Position numbers and translations under genes: made by a program | Shown here: positions 18,243 through 63,450 of the stretch, piece by piece | Position numbering within the stretch: the first letter of the stretch is position 1 | How the letters are laid out: every line of letters begins with the position of its first letter | The notes under the pieces: model-generated | Told to the model about the DNA's origin: nothing | Databases searched by the model: none | What the model saw: the letters and a program-made list of their open reading frames with translations, nothing else | DNA from: Squalus acanthias | Taxonomy: Eukaryota | DNA: 64,000 bases | NCBI GenBank assembly: GCA_030390025.1 | Contig: CM059431.1 | Coordinates: 117,616,001-117,680,000 of the forward strand | Direction of reading: 5' to 3'

Positions 18243-18543
18243 CTTCCTGCATTACACTCATATTTCTGCTACATGCTGTGCCAGGTCCTCCCCCCCACCA
18301 ACCAACAACACCATAAAGTATCCCTACAATGACCAAGCCATTCCTTTCACACTGACCCCCATTGCTGGAGGTAACGTTATGTCTCACCATTCACTCCAAC
18401 TCACTGAGCCGCTTCCAAAGTAGCTGACAAAAATGGGCATGACCAGAAAGTGGTGAAAATAAATAGTTTTATATGTGTCAAAACATTAACGGTACCTTAA
18501 CAACAACACTTCTTTAAACACCCAAGTGCTTACCCTTGTGCAT

Positions 18544-20438
18544 CTACTTGTGTGTCATCTTTCTCTTACGCATGCTTCTACGAGGTGTAACCCCTGTAGC
18601 TTCAGCAGAGTTAGAGGCAGGCTGCTCACTTCGCTGCTGCGACTGCGTAGACACTTTTGCCAGATGTCCTCTGGGTTTGGAGCCTCTGATGGCCCCGCCA
18701 AAGTCTGCTGCACCTGTGACTGTGCAGGGGGAGACTCGGCCATCGCGATCCAAGGAGGCATCTGGGGCTCTGTCTGAGGAGGGGGACAACGGGGGAGAAG
18801 TGTGAGCACTTTGAGAGGAGCCTCCACTTCCATGTCCCTCTCACCATCATCCCTCTCATGGGCCACCCGCAATTCCCTGCTAGCAAGGAGCTGGAGAGCA
18901 CCTTGCTGCACAGCAGTGGGGCCATGAGGTTCCAAATCTACGTTTATATCCCTCCTAGAGAGGAGTTCTATGAGCCTCTGCCATCTATTCTCCATAGATA
19001 GCATGTGCTCCTGTGAGTGGTGCATTAGCTGCTCCATGCAGGTGGCCATCCTTTCCATTAAGAGCCTACAGTCGCCATCACCTGTGATATGGTGGTGCTC
19101 ATGTTGGAGATGGACTCCTCCATTCTCTGCACATTTGCAGACATCACGGCCGCCAAACCTGTCATAGCCTCCTGCACTTCTTCCTGCACCTCCAGGATCG
19201 CCCTCTTTCTCGATAGCCCCCGAGGCTCAGCGTCTGCATGCAGCTGAGCAGAGCTGGGAGCGTCCTGTGCCTTCCAGCGAGGAGTCTCCACTGCTGTCCT
19301 TGTCTCCACCACCTGCTCTTGCTCACTTGTGACTTGTGAAACACCAGGTGACAACACTACTCTATCTCGCATAGGATCCCCCGAGGCATGTGTATCTGCG
19401 CTGGTGCTGGGTGCACTTATGTCTGGTGGTGGTGCACCCTCAGAGGCTGGAGGCTCCTCTGAGGAGTCGTCTTCCTCCTCCGGCTGGACAGTGGGCGGGA
19501 GGGTGGGGGGGGTGCGGTGGGGGCTCTTGATGGACCTGTGGGAGAGTAAAGAGATGATTTAAAAATGTTATATTAAGAATGGATAACGATACCATTATGC
19601 ACATAATGGACATTCACTGGCTGCTGACATCAGTCCCCATATGAGTGACTGCTGTATGCCATGTAATGAGATGTATGAGATGTAATTCTGTCACCAGGTT
19701 GCTGAGATGTTCCCCTCTCTCCGTCTCCCACCGCCAGCAGCTCTGCAACTCCTGACACCTCCAGGGTGACCTCCTCTGCTGCTGTCAAAGTGGCGAAAGA
19801 TGGAGGGCCACGTCTGGTTCTCTCCCTCTCCCTGTTGTTGTGTGCTCGTTTCTCCTGCAAGGAGGGAAAGAAGAGAAGTTTGAGTGAGCTTGATGGCATG
19901 AGTGTAAGGAATGTGTGGGTTACATCTTTAGAGGGAGACTATGATGGAGTGGGGTGGCAATGGCAAATGGCCTCCTTGTGTGTTGTTAGTTGGTATGATT
20001 GCATTAGGATGAGGGTGAGTGTGAGGGGTGGTTAGTCAGATGGGGATGTGAGTATGCACATAGAGAGAGAGGGATGGGTGGATGTGCATGGTATGCTGGT
20101 ATGAGTAATGATGTGCAGGAGCAGGCTTGGGAAGGTAGAGTGATGGTGATGTGATGAGAGGCACAGCAGGATGAAGGTGAGTGTGGCTTTGCACTCACCT
20201 TTCCTGATCTCATGAGATCATTGAAGCATTTTCAGCACTGCACCCAGGTCCGCCTCACCACATCCCTGCTGTTCACCTCCTCTCCAATTTGGAACCAGGC
20301 TCTTTTTGTCTCCTGGAGAGGTCTCTTCCCCCCATCAGGAGGGAAGAGGACCTCCCTGCATGCTCTGACTCCCTCCACAAGAATATGTAGGGAGTCATCT
20401 GAAAATCTTGGTGCAGCCCTCTGTCTTTCTGAAGCCAT
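18544..20438 (-). pseudogene. Harbinger Myb/SANT-like gene (exons 20438-20199, 19854-19695, 19535-18544)
   Basis: MASERQRAAPRFSDDSLHILVEGVR...; 240/160-nt exons with GT/AG; TGA at 20234-20232; C-terminal RKRK. Confidence 0.9.
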
Positions 20439-21089
20439 CTTTGCAAGTCTGAGCAATAACCAGATCGTGATATATCCTCACTGCACACTCCTAGATGAAA
20501 CTTCAAATGCGATGTGGCCAAGGCTGTTTTAAATATCCCCACTGGAAATGCGTTATCGATGATGTCATCAGACACGTACCATTTAATAGGGCCGGGAAAC
20601 GCGCAGACCTGCCTTAATAGGTGGCATTAACAGAAAGTCGCTCTGAGGAGTGGGATGATAAGAACAACGTGGTTCTGACCCACCATGCGGCCCGCACGCA
20701 CCCCACCCGCCTAGGTAAGGAAAATTCCGGCCTATGATTCTATATGAGATCATATTTTGATGTTTCAATAAAATAAATATTTTATATTGAAAATTTGAAT
20801 GTGAAGAACATCCGAAGGCTAGTCTTTGTTTTCGGTTGCCTGTTTTCATCCTGTTGGGTCCATGAATAACCAATTCTTTAAATTGAGCCAGCAGAAAGCA
20901 TCTAATCAAGGCTGTCATTATGTTGGCTTCACACGTCTCCAGCAGTTAAATGAACTGCTTAACTAGTGTAGAAATGATAACGTTCGTAAATCAGTAGTGC
21001 AAATGGAAAGAAATATCAGTGTTAGTTGAATATTTTCATAGATCCCAGTTGATTGTTTCAGGCATGAATACTTTGCTTCACAGAAAGGA

Positions 21090-21720
21090 CCCAAAGCCCC
21101 ACTATGAGCCTTTGGCTCAGCTGTCAATGACCTCCCTCAGTGGAAACCCCAACAACAGCTGTTGGCTAAACCCCTGATACCGGTTGTCAGCCAACTCCTG
21201 AAGAGACATTTATAAAGATACAGCTAACAGCTTTCATTTCTGCGTGGGGGGGCCTTTGGTAATTCCTTTAGTTCTTGATATGAAGTCACTGGTTTCAGCA
21301 AAGAGCGCAGCTGCCGCCTGGCAGGTAGAGAGCTGCAGCAGCTGATTGGCGGATGCTGCAGATGTCGCCTGCTGTTGACTGGATTAAGCCGAGGCATAAA
21401 CTGTCAGGGCCTCAGTAACTTTGACAGCCGCCAGCAAGAATGGACGTGACCTGGTGCTGGGCTACAATTGGTGCTGCAGCAGGTGACAGCCTCGCTGGCA
21501 AAGTGGTACCTCCTCACATACTGCTCCTCAGTAAATTCCAGCAGATGTTCTGGGCCTGTATGCCCATGTGTGGTGAGGTCTCCTGAGAGCTGTCCTCCTT
21601 CCGTCTCTTCTCTCCGCAGCTGCAGATTCCTGGACTCTAGACTGCTCCTCCCCCTTCCCCTCCACCTCCCTCTTCTTCTCCTCCCCTTCCATCCGCAATG
21701 GCAGCCAATCCATTGAAAGC
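21090..21720 (-). pseudogene. Degenerate Harbinger transposase remnant
   Basis: LEFTEEQYVRRYHF, LLAAVKVTEAL and LADNRYQGFSQQLL-like segments. Confidence 0.6.
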
Positions 21721-21797
21721 AATCAGAAGTTTTCCAGAAGCCCCTGGTCAAAACCCCTCTGCCCACTCACCAAATTACTTTCACTAACAGATACTGT

Positions 21798-22640
21798 GGG
21801 CTGGATTTTGAAGTTGGGGTTGGGTTGGGGTCATGAATCACACATTCTGGCTTGTGAATCCGCCTCCATCGAGATGTGGCCAACCCACTGTATTTTCCCT
21901 TGATTGACCTTGTTGAGTCCGCCCAGTGGGCTCAGCAGGCCAATTAAGGGCCACCCGGCAACAGGTGACATCACAGACTGACATTTCATCTGTCAAGAGC
22001 TTTTGACAGATGAAATATCAGCGTTTGACAGCTCTGTGAAGCTGTCAAACACTCACAATATGATTTCTAACTTCAGTCCTTCCTTTCAGGCTGAGTTAGA
22101 AATCATTCCAGCACAGAAAACAGAAGGCTGCAGGTTTTGACAGAACCATGGCTTTCCTGCTTTCTGTACCGGTGAGATTTCTAATTCCCGAGAACTGAAG
22201 GGCTGACACCTGCAGGAGGAAGTTAAGGTAAGTAAAACTTTTTCCAACACTTAGCACTTACCTTACACACTTACCTCTGCACACATGCACCCATCACTCA
22301 CCTACCCACCGGACATATCGACCCCTCCAACCCCTGCAGACCCACGGCCCGACCCGATAACTTGGAGTGGTTGCTACCTGTCGGGAAGCCCACACTTTTC
22401 TTTTGAAAATAGGGATTATGCAAAAAACTGCCTGTTAACTACCTGTTAACAGGCAGTTAATTGTCACTATTTCCTTCCCGCCTCGGGGAGTCAGGTCTCA
22501 GACCAGGTCGGGTACCCGCCGCCAGAGAAACTGGCATGGAGGCGGGTTGGAGTCGGGATGGGGTCGGGACCCCCGAATCTGCAACTTTAACCCTCCCCCG
22601 CCTCCAAACCCTACTCCACGGGTCATTGAAAATCCAGCCC
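21798..22640. mobile_element. Harbinger-type MITE (843 bp) with internal hairpin array
   Basis: Perfect 12-bp TIR GGGCTGGATTTT, flanks TGT/TAT, ACCCGCC subterminal motifs. Confidence 0.82.
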
Positions 22641-24565
22641 TATCAGTTCCGGTATCCCAAAGTTCCTAAAAAGCTCAAAAGCAATCTAAAGTAACTAACT
22701 AGAGAGCAGGTGATGAGTCCTTTAAATATTGCTCGACAAGGCAATGCTGCTCTCAACCTTTGATTTGCGTGACTGATTTAGAATTGGCAAATAGGATGCC
22801 ACAGCTATTGAAAAAGGCATTTTGGTCCTTAAACAAGCACAGGATCCTAATTAGCATGCACATATAGGTCTCCGCTGATTTCAGTCGAGGACACTGGACG
22901 CCTCAAAATTACAATGGGTATATTCTGTGGAGGGAACAGGCATGCAAGATCAAAACTCAACTTTCCGTGCATTCGTTCTCATTTTTTGGAGTAGAAACGG
23001 GCATTCACAAGTTAAAAATTCCCCCCACCCCCCCTTGATATTCAGAACATTTTCTGGAATAACAAGTATAGCTGTGGGTAGAAACATACTGAGGGAAAAA
23101 ATTGTGTGGTTTGCGCCACATTTTAGTGGCACAAGATGGCGCTAAAATGCTGTTGACAGCTTTAATGCCGGCTGATGCTGGTTCCAGCGCCGCACGCCAT
23201 ATCGGTGTTGCCAATAGTGCTGCCAGTAAACTTGATCACCAGGGATTTCGCCATCATGGAGATCGTGACATCAGTGAGTGTGCAACGCTCACTGGATGTT
23301 CGATCTCCCAACTTCGTTATAGCCACTTGCCTTAACGGCAGCGCAGAACAACGATAGGGAGAGCTGGCCTCAGGAGGATGACGAGGCAGAGGAGGATGAG
23401 AAGGAAGAGGACGAGGAGGAGGAGGATGAGGAGGAGGAGGAACAGGAGGGAGTGTGGAGGCAGCAAGACAATCGGCCTTCTGAATGGGCTATCCGTGACC
23501 GGCTCATCAGACTCAGATTCGCATGAATATAACCCCAAATCCCCATAGCTCACCACATCCCCATCATGCAATCTCTGTATCATGCCATATCACAGCATCC
23601 TCCTGGTGCAAAGGTGAAATGAGAGAGACCACAAAATATTCCAAAATCCATTAATAAATTTATGCATAAACATATCACACATATCACATGAATTTTAATA
23701 ACTAATGATCCTTGAGCATACCATAGTTGAATAGCTGTCATTGTGCGCAAGGTGTGAGATGTGGGTATGAGTGTTGGTGGGTAGAGATTGTTGGTGGGTG
23801 AGTGCTGGGGGTGCAATGCTTTGGGCAGTGTGTGAAGCTTGTGGTATAGATGGTGGTATGTAGCATTTGTTGAAGCATTCAATCATCCTGGCCAACCGAC
23901 TGAGGTGGATCTGCCATGAGCACACCTGCTTCCATCCTGCGGCTCCTTCTCCTTGTTGTGCTTCTCCTTGCTGAGGCAGCTGCACAGCCAGCAATGCTGA
24001 GAATGAGGTGCTGCAGTATCAATGAACCTCCCTTTAAGTACTGGGAAAAGTCTGTGGCAATAATGAGTTGCAATTAGACAAAACCCGATATTGGTCCACC
24101 TTTTAAGTGTAACGCCAATGAGCTAGGCCTTTAAGACTTGATTTAGTGCCCCAATCATTTCTTTGAGCAGTGAGAATGAATTTTGCGTGCAGTCTAAAGC
24201 ATTAGCGCCTGGCACTAATTCTCAGCTAGAAATTCGGTATCATCCCAGTTGGGGCGCTAAATTTTAAAATGTTGCAGAATTAACGCCAGGCGTTAATCCT
24301 TCTGACCTCCCGCTAAATTGATTGTTAGCGCTCCAAGAAAGAACTGGAGTGCTAAATCATGCGCTAATCACCTAACTTAGGGTGCTACACACAGCAAGTG
24401 GGGCATTACTCACAGAGTGATAACCAATTTCAGGTGCACTCCAATCAGGACTCATCATTCACACTGGCTCCTTCTAGTTCTTAAAGGGGAGGTTCAATCA
24501 TTCAGCACCACCTCACGCTCTGAAGGCGATCTCCAAGCAACTCAACAGCTACACCTCTTATCCTC

Positions 24566-26019
24566 ATGGCTGATCCCAGTCCCAGGGAGAGAGCTCGCTA
24601 TTTCAGCAACCAGGCATTGGAGGCATTGGTCGCAGCAGTCGAAAGAAGGAGAGCAGTGCTGTTCCCGGCCACTGGCAGGAGGCCATTGCCCCAGGTCTTC
24701 AGGGCAATGTGGAGGGAAGTGGCCCAAGACGTCTCGGTCAGCAGTGTCGTCCTCAGGACCCTCACACAGTGCCGTAAAAAATTCAACGACCTCACTCAGG
24801 TGGTCAGGGTGAGTACATGCTTCAACAAGTCCTACATACCAGCATCTGAACCTCAGTCTGTACACACTGCACAAACCACCACACCCCCACCACTCACCCA
24901 CCAAGCATCTCCACCTACTAAATCTCACATCCACATCTCACGCTTTGCCTATAATCACAGCTATTCAACTATGGCAGGCGCATCTCCCAAACACATAGCT
25001 GCACACTCACTCACACACTTTCCTTTCTCTTGCAGGCCAAGCTGGGCCAGGTGGTGGGCGCCGTGGCTGTCGGCGACGTCGACCTGCGTGATGGCAACAA
25101 CGGTATGTTCATCCCCTCTCCGTCTCTCATCCCACTTCACCCTCACAGCACAAGCCTTTCCCACTTTCCAGCTCATTATACTGTCTGCATTCCTTGCTCC
25201 CTTCCTGCCCCCTTGCCCTCACCTTAACGTGAGTCTTGTGACTTTATGCTTTCAGGTAAACAGCAACAAGATGACCAGCCTATCCCAGTGAGAGTGAGGT
25301 GGGAGAAGAGGAGGAGGAAGAAAGCACCGCATCACTGCATGGCTCACCCGCAGGCACCACCTCAGAGTTTAGTAGAGGGGTCTGCACTGGGTGATGCACC
25401 AGGGACGAGCGGGCTACAGCAAGGCCAGGGGGAAAGGGTAGCTTGGGAGCCAGCTCCCCAGAGGGTGAGTTCACACGCGAGTTCTGCTGAACAGGACTCA
25501 GATGAGGACCTCGATGGGGAGGTGTTCACAAGAAGGGTGATGGGCATGCACACCGAGATCATAGGTGCAATGACAAGGGTGCCCGAGAGCCTGTCGGCAA
25601 TGGTAAGGAGCGTGGAAGAGTCCGCCTCCAACATTGCACAGAGCTCTGCGCACACCATGGAGCCCATCTTTGGCAGTCTGCAAAGGATGGTGGACTCCCT
25701 GAGAGACCGTGGGGACCCAGACATCATGCCGCGTGTCATGGGTGATGTGGCAGCATCCATTGTAACACAGACGGAAGCCACCCAACGTCTTAGTGCTGTA
25801 ATGCAGTCAATGGTTGCTGCCATCGAGTCTCAGACCACTCTCATGCAGTCTCAGCTTGATGCCACAAAAGCTCTGACTGCTGCCATCGTCGCTGGGCCCC
25901 CCACAGTCCACCGGGGATCTCACAGTGTTGCAGCAGGCCAGCAATCTGTGCTCCAGCAGATTGGTAGTGTTGATGAGGTGCTGCCCCGGGGGAGTGGCAG
26001 TGGGTCAGTGGAGCAGTAA
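24566..26019 (+). pseudogene. Family II Myb/SANT-like gene (exons 24566-24808, 25036-25102, 25256-26019); spliced frame open for 357 aa
   Basis: MADPSPRERARYFSNQALEALV...WREVA...QCRKKFNDL with canonical splice sites. The stop at 26017-26019 is premature relative to the copy at 38200. Confidence 0.85.
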
Positions 26020-26233
26020 CCTGCTGTCCTCTCTCAGGATGATAGCATTCCTGATCCCACCACTGGCACTCCAGCATTGCCCTTGTTGCTCCTGCCATCC
26101 AGCCATGCCAGAGTACCGCCACCCAGCCTGAGGCAGTGCAGTTTACAGCCAGGCCTTCCAGGCTCAGAGCTGGTTGAGGGCGTCCTGCAAGGCCATCTGT
26201 TGTCTCTGGCACTGACACTCAGCAGCCTTCCAC

Positions 26234-27515
26234 TGAAGGGATAATTACAAGTCCTAGCCCTTTCGGACTACCCCAGACCAGGTGTATTCCCCAGACGTTT
26301 ACCTTCAACTAAAGTTAGCGGTAGTTGGATCCCATAAGACATTTAATTGGGTCTAAAGGTCAGACTACCTCTCCCTAAAGGAAAGACATGGTCTAAAGAT
26401 GTTACCGTCCTCCGGATAGTATTTTTAATTAAGTTTAACTAGACTGTAACCTTCCGGATATTATAAGGGTCCGGAATACGCCCCAGAATTCTGCACCTCC
26501 TTTGAGTGTACAGAAATTGCGTTTGCAAGATGATACAGAAATACTCTTTGAGATTATTCTAATACTGTATAGATTTATTAAAGAACCGACAATTATGTAA
26601 CATTTATTATGGCAATCGCGACTTTAACTGTTCAAAATACAAATAGCTTACATTTCTTATCAGAGATCCTTATTCTCAAATCTTAACTTCATTACATTTC
26701 CACACTTCTACTTATTTCTTAATCCAGAATATCCACCAAAATCAAATAAGAGTACCTTGATCCCCGAGACTCAAAAGTTAAAAACTTACAGAGAATTGTC
26801 TGTTAAGTTGAGAAACGCTTGCCTTCTCAACGACTTCTGACTTTCTGTTTGAAAAGGTCTATTTTTATATCTTTTTTGGGTGGTTTATCCTTTGAAGTTT
26901 TCCTAATGATGTAAGCTTAATTGTATCAAGTCATTCTTTGCTGACTTTGTTCTATTCTTTATTGATATCTCTGTTGAATGCTTTTACTGTCAATTTAGCC
27001 ATTGCATGCATAATTATGTCTCTACCTTAGATGTTTCAAAAACCATCATAAACACAATGACAGCAATGGTTTCTGTTTGATGCAATTCTTAGGAAGTCTT
27101 TCTATTGAATTTCTAATACTACTTTAACTGGTTATTATCAGTCATTGTGACTCCGTGGTATTCCAAGTTCAATACAAGAACAATGTAATTGCTTGGTGCA
27201 TCCATTGAAGTAATATTTTCAAAGTCGTCTTGTTTGTGTACTTTTTATAACTTGTAAATACTTTATCTAGGGTGTTCCATACATTTCTTATTTACTTCAA
27301 TTGGTTTTTATCAGACCTTGGGACTCCATATTTCAAGCTTAACATTAAAACTATTTGTTCAGCGGGCGTTTCTTTTACTTGATGTCATTTTACTTGTTTG
27401 CAGCCTGTGTCTGCTAAGGCTTATGTCTTTTAAACCCAGTATGTCATTTATTAATAATTTCAGAAATCTGTTTTTAGTATCGTGTATTTTTCTGAATCCT
27501 GGCTATTCCTTCACA
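26234..27515 (-). mobile_element. Solo LTR (1282 bp)
   Basis: TG...CA ends (TGAAGG.../...CCTTCACA) and CCAC TSD. The minus strand has ATATAAAAA (26870) upstream of AATAAA (26579). The host sequence rejoins across it. Confidence 0.82.
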
Positions 27516-27772
27516 CCACCAGCTCTGCTGCAGCCGCTGGGGACAGACTACATAGGAGCAGTAGTTGAGGAAAAGGCACTGTAAAGAGGGGAAGTAAGGG
27601 TTTGCACAATGGTGATTAGTTAATATTGTTGTTGTATATATGTGTTTACTGAATGTTGATAAATTTATTAATGGAATTTTGCTGATTTTCTGTTGTCTCT
27701 CATTTCAGCTTTGCGCTGTGACATGGCAAGCGAAATGGATGGAATGATGGGGATATAGATCTGGGGTAGAAT

Positions 27773-28748
27773 TTATTGGAACCGCAGTCTGATGAGGCGG
27801 TCACGGACCGCCCTTCCAGAAGGCCGATTGAGTGGCTACCTCCTCCCTCGCTGCTGTTCCTCCTCCTCCTCATCCTCCTTGTCCTCCTCCTCTCTCTCTT
27901 CCTCCTCCTGAGGTGGTCCCGCTATGCCTGGTGGCAATGGCTCGGCCCTTATGATGGCCAAGTTGTGCAGCATGCAGCAGACCACGACAAAAAGGGACAC
28001 CCGCTCATCTGAGTGCTGGAGGGCTCCTCCCGAGCGGTCAAGGCAACGGAACTGTTGCTTGAGCACTCCGATGGACTGCTCGATGATGTTCTTGGTGGCG
28101 GCAATGCTCTCATTATATGAGTAGTGTTGGGGTTGCGGAGGGGTGTCATGAGCCAGGTGGAGAGCAGATAGCCCTTGTCTCCAACCAGCCAACCGTGAGC
28201 TTGATGTGGTGGCTGGAAGATTGCTGGCACACTAGTCTGGCGTAGGGTGAAGGCATCAAGGCTGCTGCCAGGATAGCGGGCAATGATGGTGAGGATTCAC
28301 TGTCTGTGGTCGCACACCAACTGCACATTAAGTGAGTGGCATCCTTTGCGGTTACGGAATACCTCAGGATTGTTATGGGATGCCCGCAAAGCCACGTGGG
28401 TGCAGTCAATGGCGCCTTGCACCATGAGGAAGCCCGCTTTCCTGGCAAAGCCACATGCACGCTTGTCCTGCTTCTCTCTGGTGATGGGGAAGGAAATGTA
28501 GTCCATTCTCCTTCTGTAGAAAGCCTCTGTGACCTTCCGAATGCAGCAATGGACGGCAAATGGCGGAGCCTCCTAAGACACTGGTCCTCAGTTAAATTTA
28601 TGTCGGAGAAGTGTTCCCGGAATACCCTGGGAGGGTAAGGCCTCCTGTTGACAGCCCTTTTGATCCTCCTCCCTCTGGCCACATTTTCCAATCTTTGTCT
28701 CTGCTTCCAATGCTGGAGGGCGGGGTCGAGTGACAGTACAGCCCCCAT
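27773..28748 (-). pseudogene. Harbinger DDE transposase, frameshifted and internally deleted
   Basis: [52 protein letters not shown], acidic tail. Confidence 0.92.
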
Positions 28749-29299
28749 TAACGTATCCAAGTGTAGGAAGCTGAAATCTCAGCACAATGAAACTGACAAT
28801 TTTTTAGCAGCCAGAACACTCCTGAAAGTAATAAGCATTTACCTCACTGAAAACGGCTGTTTCCCTATGTTAAACTGAGAAGGCAGCATTGATTGGCGAC
28901 TAAAATGAAAGCAGATGTTGATGCCTTTAAACACCGCTCCTACAGCGGCCATCTGACTGCATCACGCCTCCTCTTCCTGCCGTTGTTCACACCAGGCGCT
29001 AAGGCAGGGGGCGGCAGTGACTTTTGCATCTGGGCCGTTAACGGGGTGTTCCACACGTGTAGACGTCATGATCTGGCAGCCGCTAAAGGCGTAGGTGCTA
29101 ACGTTATCGGCAGCGCTAAATCCCGGGTGAATGTCGTGTGCGGCGTTGGATTCGCCGCGCCCCACCGCAAAGCCCCGCCCCATTAGCGCCCCCCTCCAGG
29201 TGCTAAAGGGAGGCGCTAAAATGCCAAATTTCTCCCCCTTAAACTTTTCTAATGATACAACCCATTCCTGGGCTATAATAAATTTCTAGCCCAAAATGG

Positions 29300-31898
29300 T
29301 TAAGTAGCGTCACCTGAAAATCGTCTAAGCTGTACGCAGAATTTGTCCTCACTCCTCATTAAAATGATTGCAGTCATGATTCTCGTCTAAAAACCCAAGC
29401 TCATTGGCATTCCACTAAAAAGATGGACCAATAACGGGGGCAGTCTAAATGCAAGTAATGATTGCCACAGGCTTTTTCACTAATTAAAGGGGAGGTTCAT
29501 TGATGCTGCAGCACCTCATTTCCAGCATTGTTGGGTGTGCAGCTGCCTCAACAACCATAAGAAGAAGGACAAGGAGAAGTAGCACTTAATTACAAATCCT
29601 GATGGCAGATCACTGCCTCAGGGAGAGAGCCTGGAGGTTTTCCGATGAAGCTTTGGAGGCATTGGTTTTAGCAGTGGAGGGAGATGGGTGATCCTGTACC
29701 CGGCAACTGGCAGGTTGCCCTTGATACAAGCCTGCCGGACTATGTGGAGAGAGGTGGCAAACCATGTCACGGGCAGCACTGTGCTCTCCAGGACCCACAC
29801 CCTGTGCAGGAAGAAGTTTAATGACCAGGTGGTCAGGGTGAGTGAAGGCTTCAACAAATGCTACATACCAGCATCTGTATCACAAGCTTCACACACAGCT
29901 CAATGCACCACACCACCAGCACTCACCCACCAACAATATCTATCTAGTAACACTCACACTCACATCTCACACCTTGCACACAATGTTAGCTATTCAACTA
30001 TGGCAGGCACAAAAGTCATTAGTTATTAGAATTCATGTGATATGTGTAATATGTTTGCAGATAAATTTATTAATTATGTCTGGAATATTTTGTGGTCTCT
30101 CTCATTTCACCTTTGCACCCAGGTGGACGCTGTGATCTGGCGTGAGACAGAGATTGTATGATGGGGATGTGGTGAACTATGAGAATCTGGGCTTTAATTC
30201 ATGCAATTTGGAGACTGATAAGCTGGTCATGGACAGCCCATCCGGAAGGCCGATTGTCTCGCTGCCTCCGCCCTCCCTCCTGTTCCTCCTCTTCCTCGTC
30301 CTCCTCCTCCTCATCCTCTTCCTCCTTGTCCTCCTCATCCTCTTCCTCCTCGTCCTCCTCCTCCTCATCCTTCTCTGCCTCGTCATCCTCCTGACGTTGT
30401 CCCGCAATCCCTACTGGCAAGGGCTGCGTTCTCATGATGGTCAAGTTGTGGGGCATGCAGCAGACCACGATGAAATGTGACACCCGCTTCGGCGAATACT
30501 GGAGGGCTCCTCCCGAGTGGTCGAGGCAGTGGAATCATTGCTTCAATAGGCCAATGGTCTTCTCAATGATGTTCCTGGTGGCAGCATGGCTCTCATTATA
30601 TGAGTGCTGGGCACGAGTTTTGGGAGTTGTGGAGGGGAATCATGAGCCAGGTGGAGAGCGGATAGCCCTTGTCTCTGAGCAGCCATCTGCGAGCTTGACG
30701 TGGTGGTTGGAAGAGTGCTGGCACACCCGTCTGACACAGGATGAAGGCATCGTGGCTGCTGCCAGGATAGCAAGCATTGACGGTGAGGATTCGCTGTGTG
30801 TGGTCGCACATCAACTGCAGATTAAGTGAGTGGTAGCCTTTGCGGTTACGGAAGATCTCAAGTTTGTTTGCAGTGCCCGCAAAGCCACATGGGTGCAGCC
30901 AATAGCTCCCTGCACCATGGGGAATCCTACTATCCTGGCAAAGCCACATGCATGCTTCTCTCTGGTGATCAGGAAGCCAATGCAGTCCCTTCTCCTGCTT
31001 TAGAGAGCCTCAGTGAACTCCCAGATGCAGCGATGGATGGCGAACTGTGAGATGTTGGATATGTCTCCTGCTGCAGCCTGGAAGGATCTGCTGGCAAAGA
31101 AATTGAGGGTTACGGTGACCTTGACTGCCACTGGGAGAGCCATGGTCACCCTAATGTGAGGCTGGAGGTCTGTTTGCAGGAGGTGGCAGAGTTCTGTGAC
31201 CACCTCCTTGATGAAGTAGTGCCTCCTAATACACTGCTCCTCGCTTAATTGAAGGTAGGAGAAGTGATATCGAAAGACCCTCGGAGAGTAAGGCCTCCTG
31301 TTGAGAGCCCTGATGGCCCTCCTCTTCCCTCTGCACACATGTTCCCATCTTTCTCGCTGCCTCCGCTCCCTCTGCCGTAGATCCTGGAGGATGAGATCCA
31401 CTGCCAGTACAGCCCCCATGACTTTTAGCAAGTGTTGTAGGTTGAAGCTTTTCAGAAATAATTATGGAGTTTTGTAGTTGCCACAACGCTCCCTGATATC
31501 AATGAACCTTGAAATTAATAAAGAAAACTCTTCCAGTAGTAGGAAGTAGCACACAGCCACTCAAACTTCAAAAACCTGTCAGGTCCGAGTGATTGGTGAT
31601 GATCCCTTTAAATAGCGTCTCTGGAGCTGGCGTCCGGCTGCTGCACGCCAGCTGAAGTTAATTGGCTGAAATGAAGTTGGATGAGTGGGCTTCAAGTGAG
31701 CGTTGCACACTCACTGATGTCACGATCTCCATGATGGCGAGGTCCCTGGCGATCACGTTCAGCGGCAACGCTACCGATCAACACCGATATGGCATGCGGC
31801 GCTGGAACCAGAATCAGGTGGCGTTAAACCTCTCAATGGCATCTTAGCGCCATCTTGTGGCGCTAACGTGTGGCGCAAACCACATGAATTTCTCCCCC
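29300..31898. mobile_element. Harbinger family II element (copy B): transposase plus Myb exon 1 only
   Basis: Right TIR GAATTTCTCCCCC; Myb exon 1 at 29602-29837; left end eroded. Confidence 0.8.
30199..31419 (-). pseudogene. Harbinger DDE transposase
   Basis: ALPVAVKVTVTLNFFAS, NRKGYHSLNLQLMCD, YPGSSHDAF, DKGYPL, long E/D tail; frameshifted. Confidence 0.92.
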
Positions 31899-33431
31899 AA
31901 AATGTCTTCATTAGTTTTTCAATATTAATGCTCCATATAAAAAAATGCCTTATATTGGGCAATCTATAACATTGTATTGGGTAAACATAACTTGCAAATA
32001 GAAATCCAAGGCATTATTATTCTCCAATAATTTAGTGACTGACTTGCCAAAATATTCTTGGTAGATGCTCTGCATTAAAATTCATTTTCTAAGTCTTTCC
32101 ATTATCGTTTATAGTGGGTGTGGCTATCTTTAATGGCAGCAATTTGAGCTAGTTACCCATGCATAAATATGAGACATTGTCTAATCTATATTCCAGGCTT
32201 CGGATAGGGATAGTAAATATTTCACCCTCACTGCCATGCGACCTAGGTTCCAAACTGTAGGCGATGCAGACAGCTGAACTAATTGCATGTGTTTGAGCTA
32301 AGAACCGTTGTGCAACCAATGATTCGTTCACCCATTTATAATAGCTTACATAATGAAGGAGAATGAAGGAAAATATGGGCAGTGAGGCCTGCTGCCGCTT
32401 CACCACTTTACCTGTACGCCCCTCTGCCTCCTCCTGTCGGGTCCATTGCTGGCCTCTCCTTAACCGTCCAATGCATTTAAATGGCAGTGAAGGGTGGGGC
32501 CCAGATCCCCAATGGATCTCCCTCCTCTCAGCCTGTGTTATTGCTACTTCTTGGGGCCGCCAAGGGGGAGTTGGTTATCGGCCCCAGAAAGCGGTGATAA
32601 TGGCCCTGAGATTCCCCATGTGGAGGGGCAGGTCCTCAACACTTACCTGAAGGCTCTGGTCTCGACTGCGAACTTCAATAGGACATTCATTTCAGTCTTT
32701 GGGGGCGCTTTTGCTCCTTTACGTTCCTCGTTAGTTCTTCTGTTACTGCAGCAGTATCCCTTCTGATCAAGATCCTGTTCTGCATACTGGTGGGCCACTT
32801 GCTTAGCAATGGGAATCCCACCAAAAAGCCCAGCATGCATCTGTGACAAGCCCTGACCCAGGAAAATGGGATCAGGGTTGGGGAAGATTCAGGGAGTGGA
32901 TCAGGCAGAAGTCCTGTCCTGCCTGAACTCCTCCCCAAAGAGGAGAATTCCAGCCAAGTTGATCTAAAAGATTGAATGAACACTTTTGTTCTGATCTTGC
33001 ATTGCCATAGTGATGAACTTCAGTACAGAAGCTATATGAGGGAACCGTCTTCGGAATGAAGTGCTTGTAGATTTTGATTAACAGCTTTTCTGGAACAAAC
33101 CCAAGTACACGTGAGGATTCAGTATCAGATTTCTCCTTTTTTAAGTTTGATCTTCTTCCCCAGCAATTTAATTCCTATAAAATCTCTGTGTGTCATTTGC
33201 AGAAATATATTGAAAAATTACATAAAAGCTGCATTGATGAAAGGTAGATCTTTTACGCTCTGTTTCCCAGCACTCAGGATTCACTAGTTTGATTCTGTTC
33301 TCTCTGGTTTTATGTTGCAGTAGAACCTGTTCATTACTGATGAAATAGTAAGTATAACTACCTCAAAATGCAATTAAAGCAACATGTCCCTACTTATCTT
33401 TTAATTTAAATCTGAAGATTGCATTTTGGTG

Positions 33432-33719
33432 TTAAGACCAAACTGTAGAAGGTATACATCGATGAGGCTGGATGAAAGGGCACACTACGTCATCAATATA
33501 CAGGATAATTTGGCAGTTCTTCAGTTTACCAATGTCTTGGAAATCAGTAGGATATGTCAATAACATTTGAGTTAAATGACTGCTACTGACATTGCAGAGC
33601 ACTAAGTTAAATTTGAGGGATTTTGCAGTGTTGTAGCTAAGTAGAGATGCCATTGATTGAGGCTCTTACGTGAAATCTGATGGTTAGGCATCGTCTTTGG
33701 ACTGTAACTAAGACTCAGT
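33432..33719 (-). pseudogene. Gypsy-like pol remnant (protease-RT linker)
   Basis: SLLSYNTAKSL...FQDIGKLKNCQIILYIDD.V.PFIQPHRCIP resembles the linker upstream of Ty3/Gypsy RT. Confidence 0.6.
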
Positions 33720-34029
33720 GGGCTAGAAATTCGTTATAGCCAAGGAATGGGCGGAGTCAGTAGAAAAGTTGGAGAATTAGCACCAGGTGGAAATGCTTTA
33801 GACTGCACGCAAAATTCATGCTCACTGCTCAATAAAATAATTGGAGTCCTAAATCAAGTCTTAAAGCCCAAGCTCATTGGCATTACACTTAAAGGGTGTA
33901 CCAATATTGGATGCAGACTAACCGCAACTCATTATTTCCACAGTTTTTTTTTCAATACTTAAAGGGGAGGTTCATTGATGCTGCAGCACCTCATTCTCAG
34001 CATTGCTGGCTGTGTAGCTGCCTCAGCGA

Positions 34030-34108
34030 GCATGAGCGTGAGCATGAGCGGGAGTGGGAGTTGGAGCATGAGCAGGAGCAGGAGCAGGAGCAAGAGCAGG
34101 AGCAGGAG
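34030..34108 (+). repeat. Degenerate (CAGGAG/CATGAG)n hexamer repeat in the Myb 5' leader
   Basis: Direct reading. Confidence 0.75.
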
Positions 34109-34543
34109 ACCAGGTGCAGGAGACCAGGTGCGCTCATGGCAGGTCCATGCCCCAGGGAGAGAGCCCACGGATTCTCTAATGAAGCATTGGAGGCATTGGT
34201 TTTTGCTGTGGAGAGACGGAGGGCGGTGCTCTACCCGATAAGTGGCAGGTGGCCCTCGTCACAAGTCTTCCACACCATGTGGAGGGAGGTAGTGCAGCAC
34301 ATCTTGAGCAGCACTGTGCAGGAAGAAATTTAATGACCTCACTCGCATGGTCAGTGTGAGTGAATACTTCAACAAATGCTACATACCACTATCTGTACCA
34401 CAATCTTCACACGCTGCCCAAGCCACCACACCCCAGCACTCACCCACCAACAATCTCCACCTACCAACACTCACACCCACATCTCACACCTTGCCTACAA
34501 TGACAGCTATTCAACTATGGCAGGCACATCACCCAAATACATG

Positions 34544-36292
34544 GGCCGCGATTTTGCCGGCACTCAGAGGGCGGGTTCAGAGGCAGGTCCGCTGTCAATA
34601 TCGAAATGATTGAAAGCAGATTGGGAACCTGCTCCGAACCCGCCTCCATGCCTTGATTGCAGAACAGATCCGATGCCAAGCGGCGGGGGAGGCATTTAAG
34701 ATGGTTAAATGCTTGTTAACTACTATTTTGCCAGCCTATTTCTATTTTGCCACTTTTTTAACGAGGTTCACATAATTCAGAGATCACGTCAGGTAAGTAG
34801 GTTAGGGTTCTCTATGTCTCCCCATTGCTGTGAATAGGTGACAGCTGCAAAAGTGGTATGAAAGCTACCATTTCACAGCCGTTCACTTTCTAATGTCGGA
34901 AGCTTGAGCCTTCAGGACTTGGAAGACACTTTTGAGCTGTATGCAGTTTCGAAGTGTTTGGAGTAAATTCTCTAGCCACTGTCACCTGCTTGGAGCAAGC
35001 TCTGTCACCATTGACAGATCGCTTCTGTCATCTCAACTTCAGCTGCCGTCTATTCCAGCAACATCGGCGCCCTTGAAAAAAATCTCACCTTGGTCCTCTG
35101 AATCCCTCCACAATCAGCCCCAACACCAACATCACCAGGCACACCAACATCACCAACAACAATATCAAACTTCTCCACAATCGCCTGATGCTGCACAGGG
35201 TATCAGCACCCAACAACATTGATGCCTGGGAGGCCAGCGATGGCATCACCTTGGCCAGATTTACTTCACTTGATGCTGCACATCTTGGCTGCCACATGAT
35301 GTGCCAGGTTGGCACCACCTCACACCAGCACCATAAAGCATCCCTATAATATCCAAGACATTCCTTTCACACTCATCACAATTGTGGGAGGGGGAGTTAT
35401 GTCTCAACATTCACTGGAACACACTAAGACACTTCCAAAGGTGAGCACAGATCTGTCCAATAAGGTAAAGTGTTAAAAATAAAGATTTCAATGTTTGACA
35501 ACAAATTAACAGAAAATTTACATGAACATTGCATAAAACACGTAAGTTCCTACCCTTGTGTGTTGTTAATTGTTATGATTCCATTAGGATGAGGGTGAGT
35601 GTGAGGGGTGGCTACTGAGATGGTGAAGTGATAATGTAGATAGAGAGGGATGGGTGGAGGTGCAAGGTAAGTTGGTGTGAGAAGGATGTGCAAGAGTAGG
35701 GTAGGGAGGCAGAGTGATGGGGATGTGATGAGTGGCATAGCAGGATAAAGTTGGGTGTGGATTTGCAGTAACGATTCATGATCTACTGAGATCAATGAAA
35801 GTTTTGTGCCACTGCAGCCTGGTCCTCCTGACGACATCCCTGCTTGTGTCCTCCTGTGCAATGTGCAACCAGGCTGTGTTGGTGCCCTGAGGAGGTCTCT
35901 TCTGTCCATGGGAAGGGAAGAGAACCTCCCTGTGTGCTGTAACTCCCTCCATAAGCATATGGAGGGAGTCATGGGAGAGCCTGGGTGCAGCCGTGCACCT
36001 TTGTGCAGTGCTTGTCAGTGTTTGCAGCACCTCAATGCTGTAGAACAGTGACAGAATAACTGTCAAAATGAATATAGCCATGGTCCCTTTAAGGAAACCG
36101 GCTGATGACACGTCATCAAATGACGTCATTAGACCCGTTCCTTTTAATTGGCCGGGAACCTCGCAGGGCTGGCTTAACAAGCCCAATCTACATAAAATCC
36201 TTTTCAGAGAGCGGCTGGAGCTGGGATCGGGACTGGGACCCGCCAATGACCTCTCCTGCCATGATCCTGCCTCCGATGGCGAAATCGCGGCC
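34544..36292. mobile_element. Harbinger family I deletion derivative nested in the Myb intron 1 of copy C
   Basis: TIR GGCCGCGATTT(T/C)GCC, flanks ATG/ATT; retains only the transposase termini and Myb exon 1 (-). Confidence 0.87.
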
Positions 36293-54924: not shown

Positions 54925-56704
54925 AAGATGTTTCTTAGTTCTGATTATACTATATTTACAGTTGTTTCCTGTCATGTTGCTTCTTTACTTATACTTTGAT
55001 TCAACTTGCTGGTACTTTTTCTTCTCCAAACCTCTTCTTGATCTTCTATGTTGTTTCTTTTCTTTATTTCCATTATTTAGCTGGCTTTCTTTGTCATCTT
55101 GCTCTTATGTTTCAGCCTCTTCTGTTGCTTATCTCACTCCTTCCTCCCTTTCAGTCTTCACCTTTATTTTTTTCCTTACTCTCTGAGTAAAATACATGGG
55201 TGGTAGAATGTCTGCAGGGGTTCTCCTGATCTTTCACCGGATCATAAACAGATGTTCAGTGGGAAATCCTCTGATTTTCTGCCAAAGTTAAGATGGCAGA
55301 TCGGGAGAATACCCTTGGAAATTCTACCCCATGGATTTTTAGGATTGAGAAGAGGCAATAAGACTCTGCCAGCCTATCCCTTTTTTATTGATCTCAACCC
55401 TACCCAGCTGTCTTTTCCACCCATTTATACTGTTGACTTCAATGGCCTTCCTTTGATAACTGGTCCCACAACTCCTTTATGCTTTGGATAAAAACATGCC
55501 CCCTAAACTCGCTTCCTATTCCTAACTTCCTAAACTTTAATTGATATCCCCATGGTATTTGAACTCTTTGCCATAATGAACAATTTGCTTGGACAATATC
55601 ATCAATCCCAGGTCAATAATGGCACCTCCAAGTCTGTTCTTTTCCAAAGAGAACAAGTCCCAAGTCCTTTCTTGGATTTTGACCTCCAGGATTGGAAACA
55701 AATGCACCTGTTATGCAACCAAAAAACCACTGAGAATATAAGAGATATATTTAATCCAGGAGCATTGGCTGCCTTTCTTATCTTCCATGGACAATGGAAA
55801 ATATGCGGCTTGGAAGATCTCAGGAATTCTTTGCCTCTACCAATTTTGCCTTTTTGTGGTAAATCCTAAACAATTTAACTTGATATCCATAATATTACAT
55901 ATGTATATAGATATATTGACATTAGCCTATAAATTACTGTTTGCCATATAAACACACTAATACTTAACATTTTTAGATGACATTCCTCTGCCTGCTACTT
56001 TAAAGGTGGTTTTGAGCCATTTATTTTAAATGAGCTAATACCTTAGATAAAAATTGTGGATATAGGAAAGTCATAAAATATGTTAAGTAGTCATATGCTA
56101 ATATCTGGAACAATACGTTCTAGGCAATAAAAACAGGTGGCAATAAATTTGAAGAATGCTGGCACTAATACAGAGCAGAAAATATTTAGTTCAATGAGCA
56201 AACAAATAACATAAAAACAAAAATCAGGGCTTGATGAATAAAAGACTTTTTCAATTTGAAAGCCAATTCCTATCTTCATTCTCTCCTTGCTCTCCCAGGA
56301 GAGAGGAAGAGAAGAAATATCTCAAAACTAGAAATTTGGAAGGAGCTGCTAAAGTGTTGTCATTCAAGTCAATCTGCAGTCTAAATTATGACTTTTCCTA
56401 GCCAGCTACCAAATGATTACATCAATTGATCCTACCCAAAGCTCTGGAATCTTCACGCACCCATCACCGAAGATGGAAAATCTTATCAGATCTGTTCCAA
56501 GTGAAATTATACAGTGGCATTGATTTTTAAACTTTGGGCTGGTGGAGGCACTCACTGGCCTGGATTTCAGCCCTAGGGGATTTTAACTACCAGGCTTCAT
56601 TTAAATTTTGACTGGCGGGTTTCCATTGGTGGAAAAGAGAACTCCCCTTCTCGCCCTGACCTCTTCTATCTGAACCACCAGGGAGGCTTCAGAGAACTTG
56701 AGTT

Positions 56705-57130
56705 AACAACAGAAAATGCTGGAAACACTCAGCAGACCATGGAGAGAGAAACAGAGTTAACGTTTCAGGTCTGTGACCCTTCGTCAGAACTGGTAAAAGT
56801 TGGAGATGTAACAGGTTTTAAGCAGGTGCAGAGGCAGGGAAAGGGGGTGGGGTGGGGAGGAAGGAACTAAAGGCACAGTCTGTGCTAGGATTGAACTCAG
56901 GAGAGATAAAATGCTGCAAATGGGGATGGCTGAATCAACAACAGCTGCCGCCTGAAAAAATGGGGGGTTTATAGTCTGAAATTGTTGAACTCAATGTTGA
57001 GTCCAGAAGGCTGTAAAGTGTCTAATCGAAAGATGAGGTGCTGTTCCTCGAGCTTATGTTGAGCTTCATTGGAACAGTGTAAGAGGCCGAGGACAGAGAG
57101 GTCAGAGTGGGAGTGGAGGGGAGAATTAAA
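56705..57130 (-). mobile_element. Penelope-like retroelement 3' end (GIY-YIG C-terminus + 3' UTR)
   Basis: 57130-56969 translates without stops to FNSPLHSHSDLSVLGLLHCSNEAQHKLEEQHLIFRLDTLQPSGLNIEFNNFRL*, the typical end of a PLE GIY-YIG endonuclease. Confidence 0.85.
56755..56791 (-). ncRNA. Minimal hammerhead ribozyme (PLE type)
   Basis: Minus strand reads AGUU CUGACGA AGGGUC ACA GACCU GAAA CGUU AACU: intact CUGAnGA and GAAA core, stem I AGUU/AACU, stem II, palindromic ACGU in place of stem III. Confidence 0.8.
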
Positions 57131-57305
57131 GAGAATTTGAGGGCCTGTTTCCGATTCACCTTGCAGTTTGCAGCACTAATGGACACCAATGTCAGTAAAG
57201 TGAATCCAACCTCACATTAAGAGGTGCATTTCCACTTTAAATAGACCTCTGAAGACCCACTGGAAATTACGCGGCAGGAGCAGGAATTCCGGCCACTTTC
57301 AGACA

Positions 57306-61295: not shown

Positions 61296-63372
61296 TTTTT
61301 TTTTATTCGTTCATGGGATATGGGCCTTGCTGGCAAGGCCAGCATTTATTGTCCATCCCTAATTGCCCTTGCGAAGGTGGTGGTGAGCCATCTTCTTGAA
61401 CCGCTGCAGTCTGTGTGGTAAAGGGATCTCAGTGGGGATCTCAGAGACGCCGCAATTGTGACTATCTTCAAGAAAGGTGACAAGTCCGATTGCGGTAATT
61501 ACAGAGGAGTTTCCCTGCTGTCTTCCACAGGGAAATTCATTGCAAGAATCCTCCTCAATCGTCTTCTCCCAGTGGCTGAAGAGCTCCTCCCAGAGTCACA
61601 ATGCGGATTCCGCCCACTAAGGGGCACAATGGACATGATCTTCACCGCACGTCAATTACAAGAGAAATGCAGGGAACAGCACCAACCGGCTGTACATGGC
61701 CTTCTTCGATCTCACAAAGACCTTCGACACTGTCAACCGTGAGAGATTATGGAGTGTCCTCTGCAAATTCGGCTGCCCTCAAAAGTTTGTCATCATCCTC
61801 CGCCTGTTTCACGACGACATGCAAGCCGTGATCCTGACGAACGGTTCCACCACAGACCCAATTCACGTACGAACCGGGGTCAAGCAAGGCTGTGTCATCG
61901 CACCAACGCTCTTCTTGATCTTCCTTGCTGCAATGCTCCATCTCACCTTCAGTAAGCTCCCCACTGGAGTGGAGCTAATTTACAGAACAAACGGGAAACT
62001 GTTCAACCTCCGTCACCTCCAGTCCAGATCCAAGGTCGTCCCATCCTCTGTCGTCGAATTACAGTATGCAGACGACGCTTGCGTCTGCACTCACTCGGAG
62101 GTCGAACTCCAAACCATCGTCAACACCTTCACCGAAGCGTACGAGAGCATGGGCCTTACACTAAACATCCGTAAGACAAAGGTCCTCTACCAACCTGAAC
62201 CACCACACAGTACTGCCCCCTGATTATCAAAATCCACGACAAGGCCTTGGACAACATGGACCACTTTCCATACCTCGGGAGCCTACTGTCAACAAGGGCA
62301 GACGTCGACGACGAAGTCCAACACCGCCTTCAGTGTGCCAGTGCAGCCTTCGGTCGCCTGAGGAAGAGAGTGTTTGAAGACCAGGACCTCAAACCCGGCA
62401 CTAAGCTCATGGTCTACAGAGCAGCAGTGATACCCACCCTGCTGTATGCCTCAGAGACATGGACTATGTACAGCAGGCACCTCAAAGCACTGGAGAGGTA
62501 CCACCAGCGCTGCCTCCGCAAGATCCTGCAAATCCATTGGCAGGATAGGCGCACCAACGTCTGTTTTCTTGCTCAGGCCAACATCGCCAGCATCGAAGCT
62601 TTGACCACACTCGATCAGCTCCGATGGACGGGTCACATTGTCCGCATGCCCGATACAAGACTCCCAAAACAAGCGCTCTACTTGGAGCTCTGGCACGGCA
62701 AGAGAGCCCCAGGTGGGCAGAGGAAACGCTTCAAGGACACCCTCAAAGCCTCCTTGAAAAAGTGTATCATCCCCACCGACACCTGGGAATCCCTGGCCCA
62801 AGACCGCACAAAGTGGAGGAGAAGCATCCGGGAAGGCGCCGAACACCTCGACTCTCTTCGCCGGGAGCAAGCGAAAGCCAAGCGCAGGCAGCGCAAGGAG
62901 CGCACGTCAACCCAAGCACCCCACCCACCTGCCCCTTCAACCACCGTCTGCCCCACCTGTGACAGAGACTGTAGGTCCCGCATTGGACTCATCAGTCACC
63001 TGCAAACTCATTTTTAATGTGGAAGCAAGTCATCCTCGGTTCTGAGGGACTGCCTAAGAGAAGAGAAGAAAGGTACTCCCACAGTGCTGTTAGGGAGGGA
63101 GTTCCAGGATTTTGACCCAGCGACGATGAAGGATCGGCGATATATTTCCAAGCCAAGATGGTGTGTGACTTGGAGTGGAACTTGGAGGTGGTGGTGTTCC
63201 CATGCGCCTGCTGCCCTTGTCCTTCTAGGTGGAAGAGGTCGCGGGTTTGGGAGGTGCTGCCGAAGAAGCCTTGGCGAGTTGCTGCAGTGCATCTTGTAGA
63301 TGGTACACACTGCAGCCACAGTATGCTGGTGGTGGAGGGAGTGAATGTTTAAGGTGATGGATGGGGTGCCAA
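61296..63372 (-). mobile_element. Second LINE family 3' end, split by the RTE insertion
   Basis: 61296-61424 and 63069-63372 join to match 46095-46520. Confidence 0.85.
61425..63068 (+). mobile_element. 5'-truncated RTE-clade LINE (RT + C-terminal C2H2-like motif)
   Basis: CGNYRGVSLLS, ESQCGFR, FFDLTKTFDTV, GVKQGCVIAP, YADD, CPTC...ISHLQTH. Two frameshifts, (AAGAG)n tail, AAAGG on both flanks. Confidence 0.92.
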
Positions 63373-63404: not shown

Positions 63405-63450
63405 AAATAACAACTGAAAATGCTGGAAACACTCAGGAGGTTAGGCAGAA
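63405..63450 (-). mobile_element. Short Penelope-like terminal remnant
   Basis: TAACAACTGAAAATGCTGGAAACACTCAG matches 56704-56732. Confidence 0.6.

Follow-up and report, generated by a model that had tools for sequence, protein, structure and literature searches.

Minimal hammerhead ribozymes (min-HHRs) of Penelope-like elements (PLEs) have been known since 2014, when those of metazoan PLEs were described as combining two boxes, a short helix I, an unpaired nucleotide at the base of stem II, and a location in the pseudo-LTR (pLTR) of the element (Cervera and De la Pena 2014, PMC4209133). The same description includes a highly conserved G10.1–C11.1 pair and a palindromic 15.2–16.2 stretch with no helix III loop, and names truncated elements, each with a single motif, as the source of most copies (PMC4209133). 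The insertion signature of PLEs is described as pLTRs from partial tandems, an adjacent inverted 5′-truncated copy, and a 30–40 bp tail (PMC8557442). In PAc (Poseidon, Anolis carolinensis), the hammerhead lies in the pLTR and is reported to need the element's protein for cleavage, while reverse transcription starts at two internal sites, with a genomic "tail" signature (PMC11167929). Other dimer-type hammerheads have been described in newt satellite 2, Schistosoma SINE-like repeats, and animal non-LTR retrozymes (PMC6765202, PMC7229834, 10.64898/2026.07.22.740005). Animal retrozymes are presented as derived from PLE pLTRs in a preprint in which one Chondrichthyes species was sampled (10.64898/2026.07.22.740005). 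A literature search on PLE hammerheads of cartilaginous fish found no paper.

Here, we analyzed a 64,000-nt stretch of Squalus acanthias DNA (hereafter, the window), in which positions 56755–56791 of the minus strand read AGTTCTGACGAAGGGTCACAGACCTGAAACGTTAACT. We consider it very probable that these 37 nt are a real minimal type-I hammerhead motif, placed close to the 3′ end of a 5′-truncated PLE copy of 428 nt, with RNA cleavage predicted only once a second copy pairs with it. The features of the motif and of the element that carries it (family 1, see below), all on the minus strand, are as follows:

56755–56791, minus strand: candidate minimal type-I hammerhead motif (direct read, patterns, descriptor, and covariance model)
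56791–56788 with 56758–56755, minus strand: predicted stem I, AGUU/AACU, 4 bp (hammerhead numbering)
56787–56781, minus strand: catalytic box CUGACGA, C3–A9 (direct read)
56780, minus strand: unpaired A between A9 and 10.1 (direct read)
56779–56775 with 56771–56767, minus strand: predicted stem II, GGGUC/GACCU, 5 bp (direct read)
56774–56772, minus strand: stem II loop, ACA (direct read)
56766–56764, minus strand: GAA, G12–A14 (direct read)
56763–56760, minus strand: palindromic ACGU (A15.1-C-G-U16.1) replacing helix III (direct read)
56759, minus strand: U17 (direct read)
56704–57131, minus strand: 5′-truncated family 1 PLE copy, 428 nt (blastn against the L062 unit)
56969–57131, minus strand: ORF-end remnant from the C-terminus of the GIY-YIG endonuclease region, with ~54 codons followed by a TAA stop at 56971–56969 (stop-free frame and fuller copies)
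56792–56968, minus strand: untranslated spacer from stop codon to motif, 177 nt, belonging to the pLTR (L062 repeat)
56704–56754, minus strand: motif to insertion 3′ end, with the short-class terminus TTGTTA (alignment of 30 copies)

The catalytic box C3-U4-G5-A6-N7-G8-A9 is present, G12-A13-A14 and A15.1 together form GAAA (56766–56763), and U16.1 and H17, here a U, fall at 56760 and 56759. From its base, stem II consists of the pairs G·U, G–C, G–C, U–A, and C–G. By the hammerhead rule, cleavage is predicted between 56759 and 56758. An earlier note on this DNA had given the minus-strand sequence correctly to the letter, and its further readings, i.e., an intact core and stem I, a stem III reduced to a palindromic ACGU with no loop, a cut after GUU at this same predicted site, and a single copy in the window, agree with our layout and with the searches below. 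Its placement of the motif ~180 nt downstream of a GIY-YIG fragment was right as to distance (177 nt), whereas the fragment alone has no Pfam match and owes its GIY-YIG reading to fuller copies elsewhere in the genome.

Several searches singled out this position. The 37-nt motif had no other match in the window at ≤3 mismatches, and 100 shuffles yielded none, while a looser pattern, CTGANGA-N(8-30)-GAAACGT, matched once against an expectation of 0.01. Our own structural descriptor, which demands both boxes, a stem II of ≥4 bp, a palindromic A..U stretch, H17, and a stem I of 4 bp, and which allows for an unpaired base, likewise matched once in the window and in none of 50 window shuffles. A covariance model built from an alignment of 47 variants (see below) scored the motif at 57.6 bits (E 4e-14) and found no second match anywhere in the window. 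The curated Rfam models gave no match at gathering score across the whole window, and no hammerhead at E up to 10 between 56400 and 57200, a miss that is expected because these models include helix III, which is absent from the min-HHR class. Three weak Rfam matches (snoZ161_228, ST7-OT4_2, and L31 leader) lay far under their thresholds and were set aside. The hammerhead-model search proposed in the earlier note fails with curated models and succeeds with a dedicated descriptor and covariance model. At the level of sequence, context, and comparison, 56755–56791 is a genuine minimal hammerhead motif.

Compared with the min-HHRs of PMC4209133, the window motif shares the CUGANGA and GAAA boxes, a 4-bp helix I, the unpaired nucleotide between A9 and 10.1, the palindromic 15.2–16.2 stretch without a helix III loop, and a place in the terminal repeat of an element with a reverse transcriptase (RT) and a GIY-YIG domain. 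Also as described there, its relatives are mostly dispersed single motifs, occur as close inverted pairs, and number in the thousands per genome (PMC4209133). Helix II has 5 bp here, unlike the 7–8 bp of the Schistosoma families (PMC4209133). Another difference concerns the pair 10.1–11.1, which is G·U in the window copy and A–U in the largest family 1 class, as opposed to the G–C of the class description (PMC4209133). The G10.1–C11.1 feature is thus lacking, yet G·U would still pair, making this a variant rather than a lost helix. Overall, the candidate motif carries all hallmarks listed in PMC4209133 save G10.1–C11.1. The unpaired A had been suspected in the earlier note, as an extra purine at the base of stem II, of impairing activity; this reading did not survive, since an unpaired nucleotide there is a hallmark of the class (PMC4209133). 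The hammerheads of De la Pena and Flores 2001 similarly tolerate an unpaired residue on the 5′ side of the base of helix II, although these are viroid ribozymes with full helices (cited in PMC4209133). With newt satellite 2, Schistosoma SINE-like repeats, and animal non-LTR retrozymes, the window motif shares the type-I topology, the link to retroelements, and an unstable or absent helix III that obliges two copies to pair; these hammerheads, however, have a 6-bp helix I, a 4-bp helix II, and loop–loop contacts, and usually form tandem arrays, whereas the window motif is single and dispersed (PMC6765202, PMC7229834, 10.64898/2026.07.22.740005). Because an ORF remnant is attached to it, the window motif derives from an ORF-bearing PLE and not from a retrozyme.

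The element around the motif was delineated by comparison with the unit at locus L062, which aligns with the window copy from 57131 to 56704 at 92.9% identity over 439 columns (blastn). A stop-free frame of 68 aa (57175–56969, minus strand) ends 177 nt upstream of the motif, and its similarity to the PLE family is confined to the part from 57131 on. While this 68-aa fragment had no Pfam match, fuller copies elsewhere carry the same C-terminal peptide after a GIY-YIG motif, hence its assignment. Beyond these ~54 terminal codons, the window copy contains no ORF. Its predicted cut lies 55 nt from the insertion end, compared with 66 nt in other copies, because it is missing 11 nt, located 26 nt after the cut site, that are present in all 29 other aligned copies. 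Separately, an isolated 44-nt piece at 63405–63448 (minus strand) is 91% identical to the family 1 terminus just 3′ of the motif, with no hammerhead alongside. In the contigs of four public runs (X1, X5, X7, and X10), summed word depth over 56706–56785 was 10 to >1,000 times that over 56850–56960. This suggests that the terminal ~100 nt, i.e., motif and terminus, are common to many more copies or subfamilies than the rest of the untranslated stretch.

A search of the 3.7-Gb genome, in which the window is C7:117616001–117680000, with 361 nt around the motif returned 6,282 first-look candidates, 40 of which were scored and showed 89–94% identity. Among these 40, full-length matches share one end base, query position 357, which corresponds to window position 56704. 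The coding region of the family is best seen at L062, where a single frame (3205–6090) broken by two stops encodes an RVT_1 domain followed by GIY-YIG, with Pfam scores under the respective cut-offs (22.3 bits and E 1.2e-4 against 29.6; 19.1 bits and E 1.7e-3 against 22.6). A 334-aa piece from L029 matched GIY-YIG no better than at E 0.13. Of 8,000 candidates scored against a 449-aa piece from L061, 804 proteins reached E ≤0.001, and the best of these were 60% identical and 800–950 aa long; 120 listed homologues all carry PF28514 and PF26215, most carry PF00078, and some PF01541. In the translation of L009, a CX4CxxC string precedes the GIY-YIG motif; this string would fit the linker of Neptune/Nematis-type PLEs, described as CX2-5CxxC between RT and endonuclease (PMC8557442).

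The L062 locus also displays the insertion signature expected of PLEs. A pLTR at 3126–3331, ahead of the ORF, repeats 6222–6428 at 94% identity, and an inverted truncated copy (2749–3124) adjoins it. The two motif positions of this unit are 3,097 nt apart, the upstream motif being decayed, and 66 nt separate the predicted cut from the downstream point (TTGTTA) at which most insertions end. A 37-nt tail extends past TTGTTA in 9 of the 30 aligned copies, and partially in one more (L012); comparison with L062 3329–3370 identifies it as the beginning of the next unit. Judged by the tails of L002–L030, insertions end in one of two ways, ~37 nt apart: short-class ends stop at TTGTTA, and long-class ends continue through the 37 nt with which the next unit begins. 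The start codon, placed by homologue N-termini, is 139 nt after the predicted cut; L062 has a further ATG in frame, 25 nt past the cut, but this one was dropped as a start, since it is the ATG at 139 nt that aligns with these N-termini. Taken together, an RT with a C-terminal GIY-YIG in one frame at the level of the family, a pLTR, an inverted copy, and a tail identify the family 1 element, by its predicted anatomy, as a canonical EN+ PLE. The labels "3′ UTR" and "pLTR" designate one and the same stretch, viewed from a single unit or from a tandem. As in PAc, the hammerhead occupies pLTR sequence at the ORF start or immediately upstream of it, and two 3′-end classes exist, here ~37 nt apart (PMC11167929). 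The PAc ORF starts within the motif itself, where stem II begins (PMC11167929), in contrast to the 139 nt after the predicted cut in family 1 and 91 nt in family 2. Directly upstream of the PLE complex, L062 1–2487 (plus strand) contains an 829-aa open frame of LTR-retrotransposon pol type (RVT_1, RNase H, integrase).

We then considered how the motif varies among family 1 copies. When copies were collected purely by DNA similarity, 26 of 30 kept both boxes together with U16.1/H17, in an alignment that includes nine duplicates of one insertion. These nine (L011, L017, L018, and L022–L027, contig C26, 15.3–17.0 Mb) have identical flanks, and therefore represent a single insertion that was copied locally by segmental or tandem duplication. 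At N7, the 30 copies have C, U, or G, and eight of the nine duplicates have G. At a 10% threshold, the variable places inside the motif in the contigs of X1, X5, X7, and X10 were N7, 10.1 (G to A), and two loop positions, with no others. Exact patterns retrieved at least 41,395 family 1 motifs with intact boxes from the 3.7-Gb genome, with 10.1–11.1 as A–U in 25,104, G·U in 15,708, G–C in 412, and A·C in 171, while reversed-pattern controls gave 0 for each of the four. C11.1 is 3.85 times commoner beside G10.1 than beside A10.1 in these counts, an excess that would fit either a pairing constraint or a small G–C subfamily. CUC-loop variants are common among the 100 G–C copies listed. By eye, the first 100 listed G·U and A–U matches include several minus/plus pairs 30–720 nt apart, i.e., head-to-head truncated copies, and a few same-strand pairs, 1.7–4.1 kb apart. 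The spacing of these inverted and same-strand pairs fits the inverted and tandem insertion habit of PLEs.

The same architecture occurs in a second PLE family. Its motif consists of a stem I UCAC/GUGA (or UUAC/GUAA), CUGANGA, an unpaired A, a stem II GGAGC/GCUCC with G–C at 10.1–11.1, GAAA, a palindromic AGCU, and U17, such that GAAA, U16.1, and U17 are kept as in family 1. The exact pattern occurs 34,616 times in the genome, and its reverse not at all. At L081 (C7:134550500–134556500, minus strand), two identical family 2 motifs 3,138 nt apart, within repeats identical over at least 281 nt, flank an open 921-aa frame with an RVT_1 domain above the Pfam cut-off. The RT of family 2 is 34% identical to that of family 1 over 426 aa. 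In L081, the insertion ends ~56 nt after the predicted cut, and the start codon placed by homologues is 91 nt after it. The family 2 motif is also present in L041, L048, L066, and L069–L080, and many family 2 copies are head-to-head inverted pairs ~10 nt apart, from which the 5′ end of the element seems to lie 1–2 nt before stem I. Together, the counts of family 1 and family 2 motifs (at least 41,395 and 34,616) exceed the ~4,000 reported for coelacanth and ~9,000 for Xenopus (PMC4209133), family-specific patterns having been used here and a general descriptor there.

Next, we evaluated covariation across 47 distinct variants from fetched loci (33 of family 1 and 14 of family 2). In the three-helix structure, 96.7% of cells were paired, compared with 75.4% in shuffles, none of 500 shuffles reaching as high; variant rows had been gathered with patterns that fix the core and the stem II words and leave the stem I columns free, so that the free covariation evidence consists of stem I, the between-family differences, and the 10.1–11.1 counts. 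Sliding the partners by 1–3 columns reduced the paired fraction to 10–48%. Changes on both sides were seen in 8 of the 11 pairs, this covariation coming essentially from two lineages plus a few subfamily changes. All four stem I pairs change on both sides between families, with 91% of cells paired, and further stem I changes convert C–G to U–A within family 2 and U–A to U·G in a family 1 subfamily. Three of the five stem II pairs change on both sides (GGGUC/GACCU vs. GGAGC/GCUCC), and the inner pair of the palindrome turns from C–G in family 1 (ACGU) to G–C in family 2 (AGCU). The unpaired A before stem II is invariant in 47 of 47 variants, across both families. All three predicted helices thus differ between the families by compensatory changes. 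The stem covariation and core conservation that the earlier note had asked for among copies were therefore found (8/11 pairs; boxes kept in 26/30 copies), and its identification of the motif as a minimal PLE hammerhead of the dimer type gains support from the sequence, the PLE context, and the comparison of two families.

How such a motif would work can be proposed by analogy. A lone motif would be unable to form helix III, and would act when two copies meet, e.g., in tandem or read-through PLE transcripts. The palindromic ACGU and an exchange of stem I strands would then join the two motifs into a double hammerhead, which would cut after U17, probably slowly and with the help of the element's protein, and this cleavage may trim unit RNAs. 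Protein-assisted cleavage has been demonstrated for PAc (PMC11167929). PLE min-HHRs show low in vitro activity even as dimers (PMC4209133, PMC6765202), and dimer cleavage of PLE hammerheads is attributed to Lunse, Weinberg and Breaker (cited in PMC6765202). In cofolding, the double hammerhead reached -8.5 kcal/mol compared with -22.9 kcal/mol for the dimer MFE, nearest-neighbour energies thus not favouring the active fold. The single-strand fold of 61 nt (-11.7 kcal/mol, z -0.53) was no better than shuffles, and the monomer MFE pairs part of the core. Because energy models ignore the tertiary core, we treated both calculations as uninformative.

Two alternative accounts of the motif itself need to be weighed against this proposal. 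Chance resemblance in repeat DNA unrelated to hammerheads might be suspected, given that Rfam finds no hammerhead and that the two core boxes amount to just 11 fixed bases. Yet shuffles produced no match, reversed-pattern controls stayed at 0 next to 15,708 to 34,616 genomic matches, the position in the pLTR is that described for PLEs (PMC4209133), and the same architecture recurs, with 8 of 11 pairs compensating, in terminal repeats that look unrelated and belong to two PLE families. This explanation, to which we assign only a minimal residual probability, is already contradicted by the comparison of the two families. More serious, if still unlikely in our view, is the idea that the hammerhead-like fold is kept mainly not for cutting, either as a 3′ recognition module that would place the protein for an RT start 55–66 nt downstream or as a passenger of PLEs. 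The distance from predicted cut to insertion end is similar (66 nt in L062, ~56 nt in L081) in families with RTs just 34% identical, although it was measured on a single full unit of each family and on a few ends. Cutting there would part the template body from the RT start site: a cut at the downstream motif would remove the RT start region 56–66 nt further on, which leaves the ribozyme with action at the upstream motif, action at some other moment, or a mainly structural role. Most family 1 copies, moreover, have A–U or G·U and not the canonical G–C at 10.1–11.1. In PAc, where cleavage needs the protein, hammerhead and core mutants are reported to be without effect on insertion in vitro, and no RNA-seq reads are reported to start or end at the cut site (PMC11167929). 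PLE clades without hammerheads are described as proliferating well, and the idea that hammerheads may parasitize PLEs has been raised (PMC8557442). Against a purely structural role, however, all catalytic-core positions are kept in both families and the helices compensate, neither of which a mere protein-binding hairpin needs, and PLE hammerheads of fungi as well as dimeric constructs from animals do cleave (PMC4209133). On balance, we favor a real minimal hammerhead that would cut when two copies pair.

Whether the window copy itself may do anything depends on its surroundings. No second motif of either family was found in the window at ≤3 mismatches, which for a minus-strand transcript covers 56.7 kb towards the 3′ end and 7.2 kb towards the 5′ end. 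Extending the search 40 kb beyond the window on the 5′ side revealed a single decayed family 1 motif, on the opposite strand and 22 kb past the window end, so that a same-strand partner is lacking within 56.7 kb on one side and 47 kb on the other. The 24 runs listed for this stretch all consist of contigs; 18 are tentatively marked as RNA, and none is recorded as such. A domain scan of 72 of the 164 stop-free frames of ≥90 aa detected no host exon or gene domain, a scan that short exons would escape, and all domains found belong to transposons (Myb/SANT-like, DDE_Tnp_4, Exo_endo_phos_2, RVT_1, and a GDSL lipase-like piece beside an endonuclease):

60–539, 17565–18239, and 24524–25288, plus strand: Harbinger-type pieces (DDE_Tnp_4, Myb/SANT-like)
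27839–28231 and 30599–31009, minus strand: Harbinger-type pieces (DDE_Tnp_4, Myb/SANT-like)
5628–6101 and 6636–7049, minus strand: LINE endonuclease and GDSL lipase-like piece
61639–62220, plus strand: RVT_1 piece

The earlier note had also raised the prospect that the motif, if active, could cut minus-strand host transcripts. In such a scenario, the window copy would lie inside a host transcript, pair in trans with abundant PLE RNAs, and cleave that transcript. The motif is intact, at least 41,395 potential family 1 partners exist in the genome, and the palindromic ACGU and identical stem I would in principle permit pairing in trans. Nevertheless, the scanned long frames contain only transposon domains, the element is a dead 428-nt fragment, the dimer would need just 12 intermolecular pairs and is not favoured by the energy model, and the published in vitro activity of such dimers is low (PMC4209133). 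We therefore regard host-transcript cutting by this copy as very improbable. The broader version of this idea, in which single motifs in the sense strand of host transcripts pair in trans with retroelement RNAs and are cut, would amount to a genome-wide layer of retroelement-driven RNA cleavage that, if true, draws on at least 76,000 intact motifs from two PLE families; we likewise give it very little credence. Most likely, the window copy is an inert relic, since it lacks an ORF and any sign of a promoter, and no partner on its strand lies within ~47–57 kb. The window motif is, in other words, an ordinary relic copy of a ribozyme kind described in 2014.

Overall, the motif marks the tail of a PLE; repeat masking, and not a count of independent ribozyme genes, is the appropriate treatment for motifs of this kind. 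The motif load of this genome is very large, with at least 41,395 and 34,616 intact-box motifs of the two families in 3.7 Gb, and most family 1 motifs have A–U or G·U where the class description expects G–C. Finally, the spacing of 56–66 nt between predicted cut and insertion end in both families sharpens the question of whether PLE hammerheads cut, or belong to the region by which the template is recognized.
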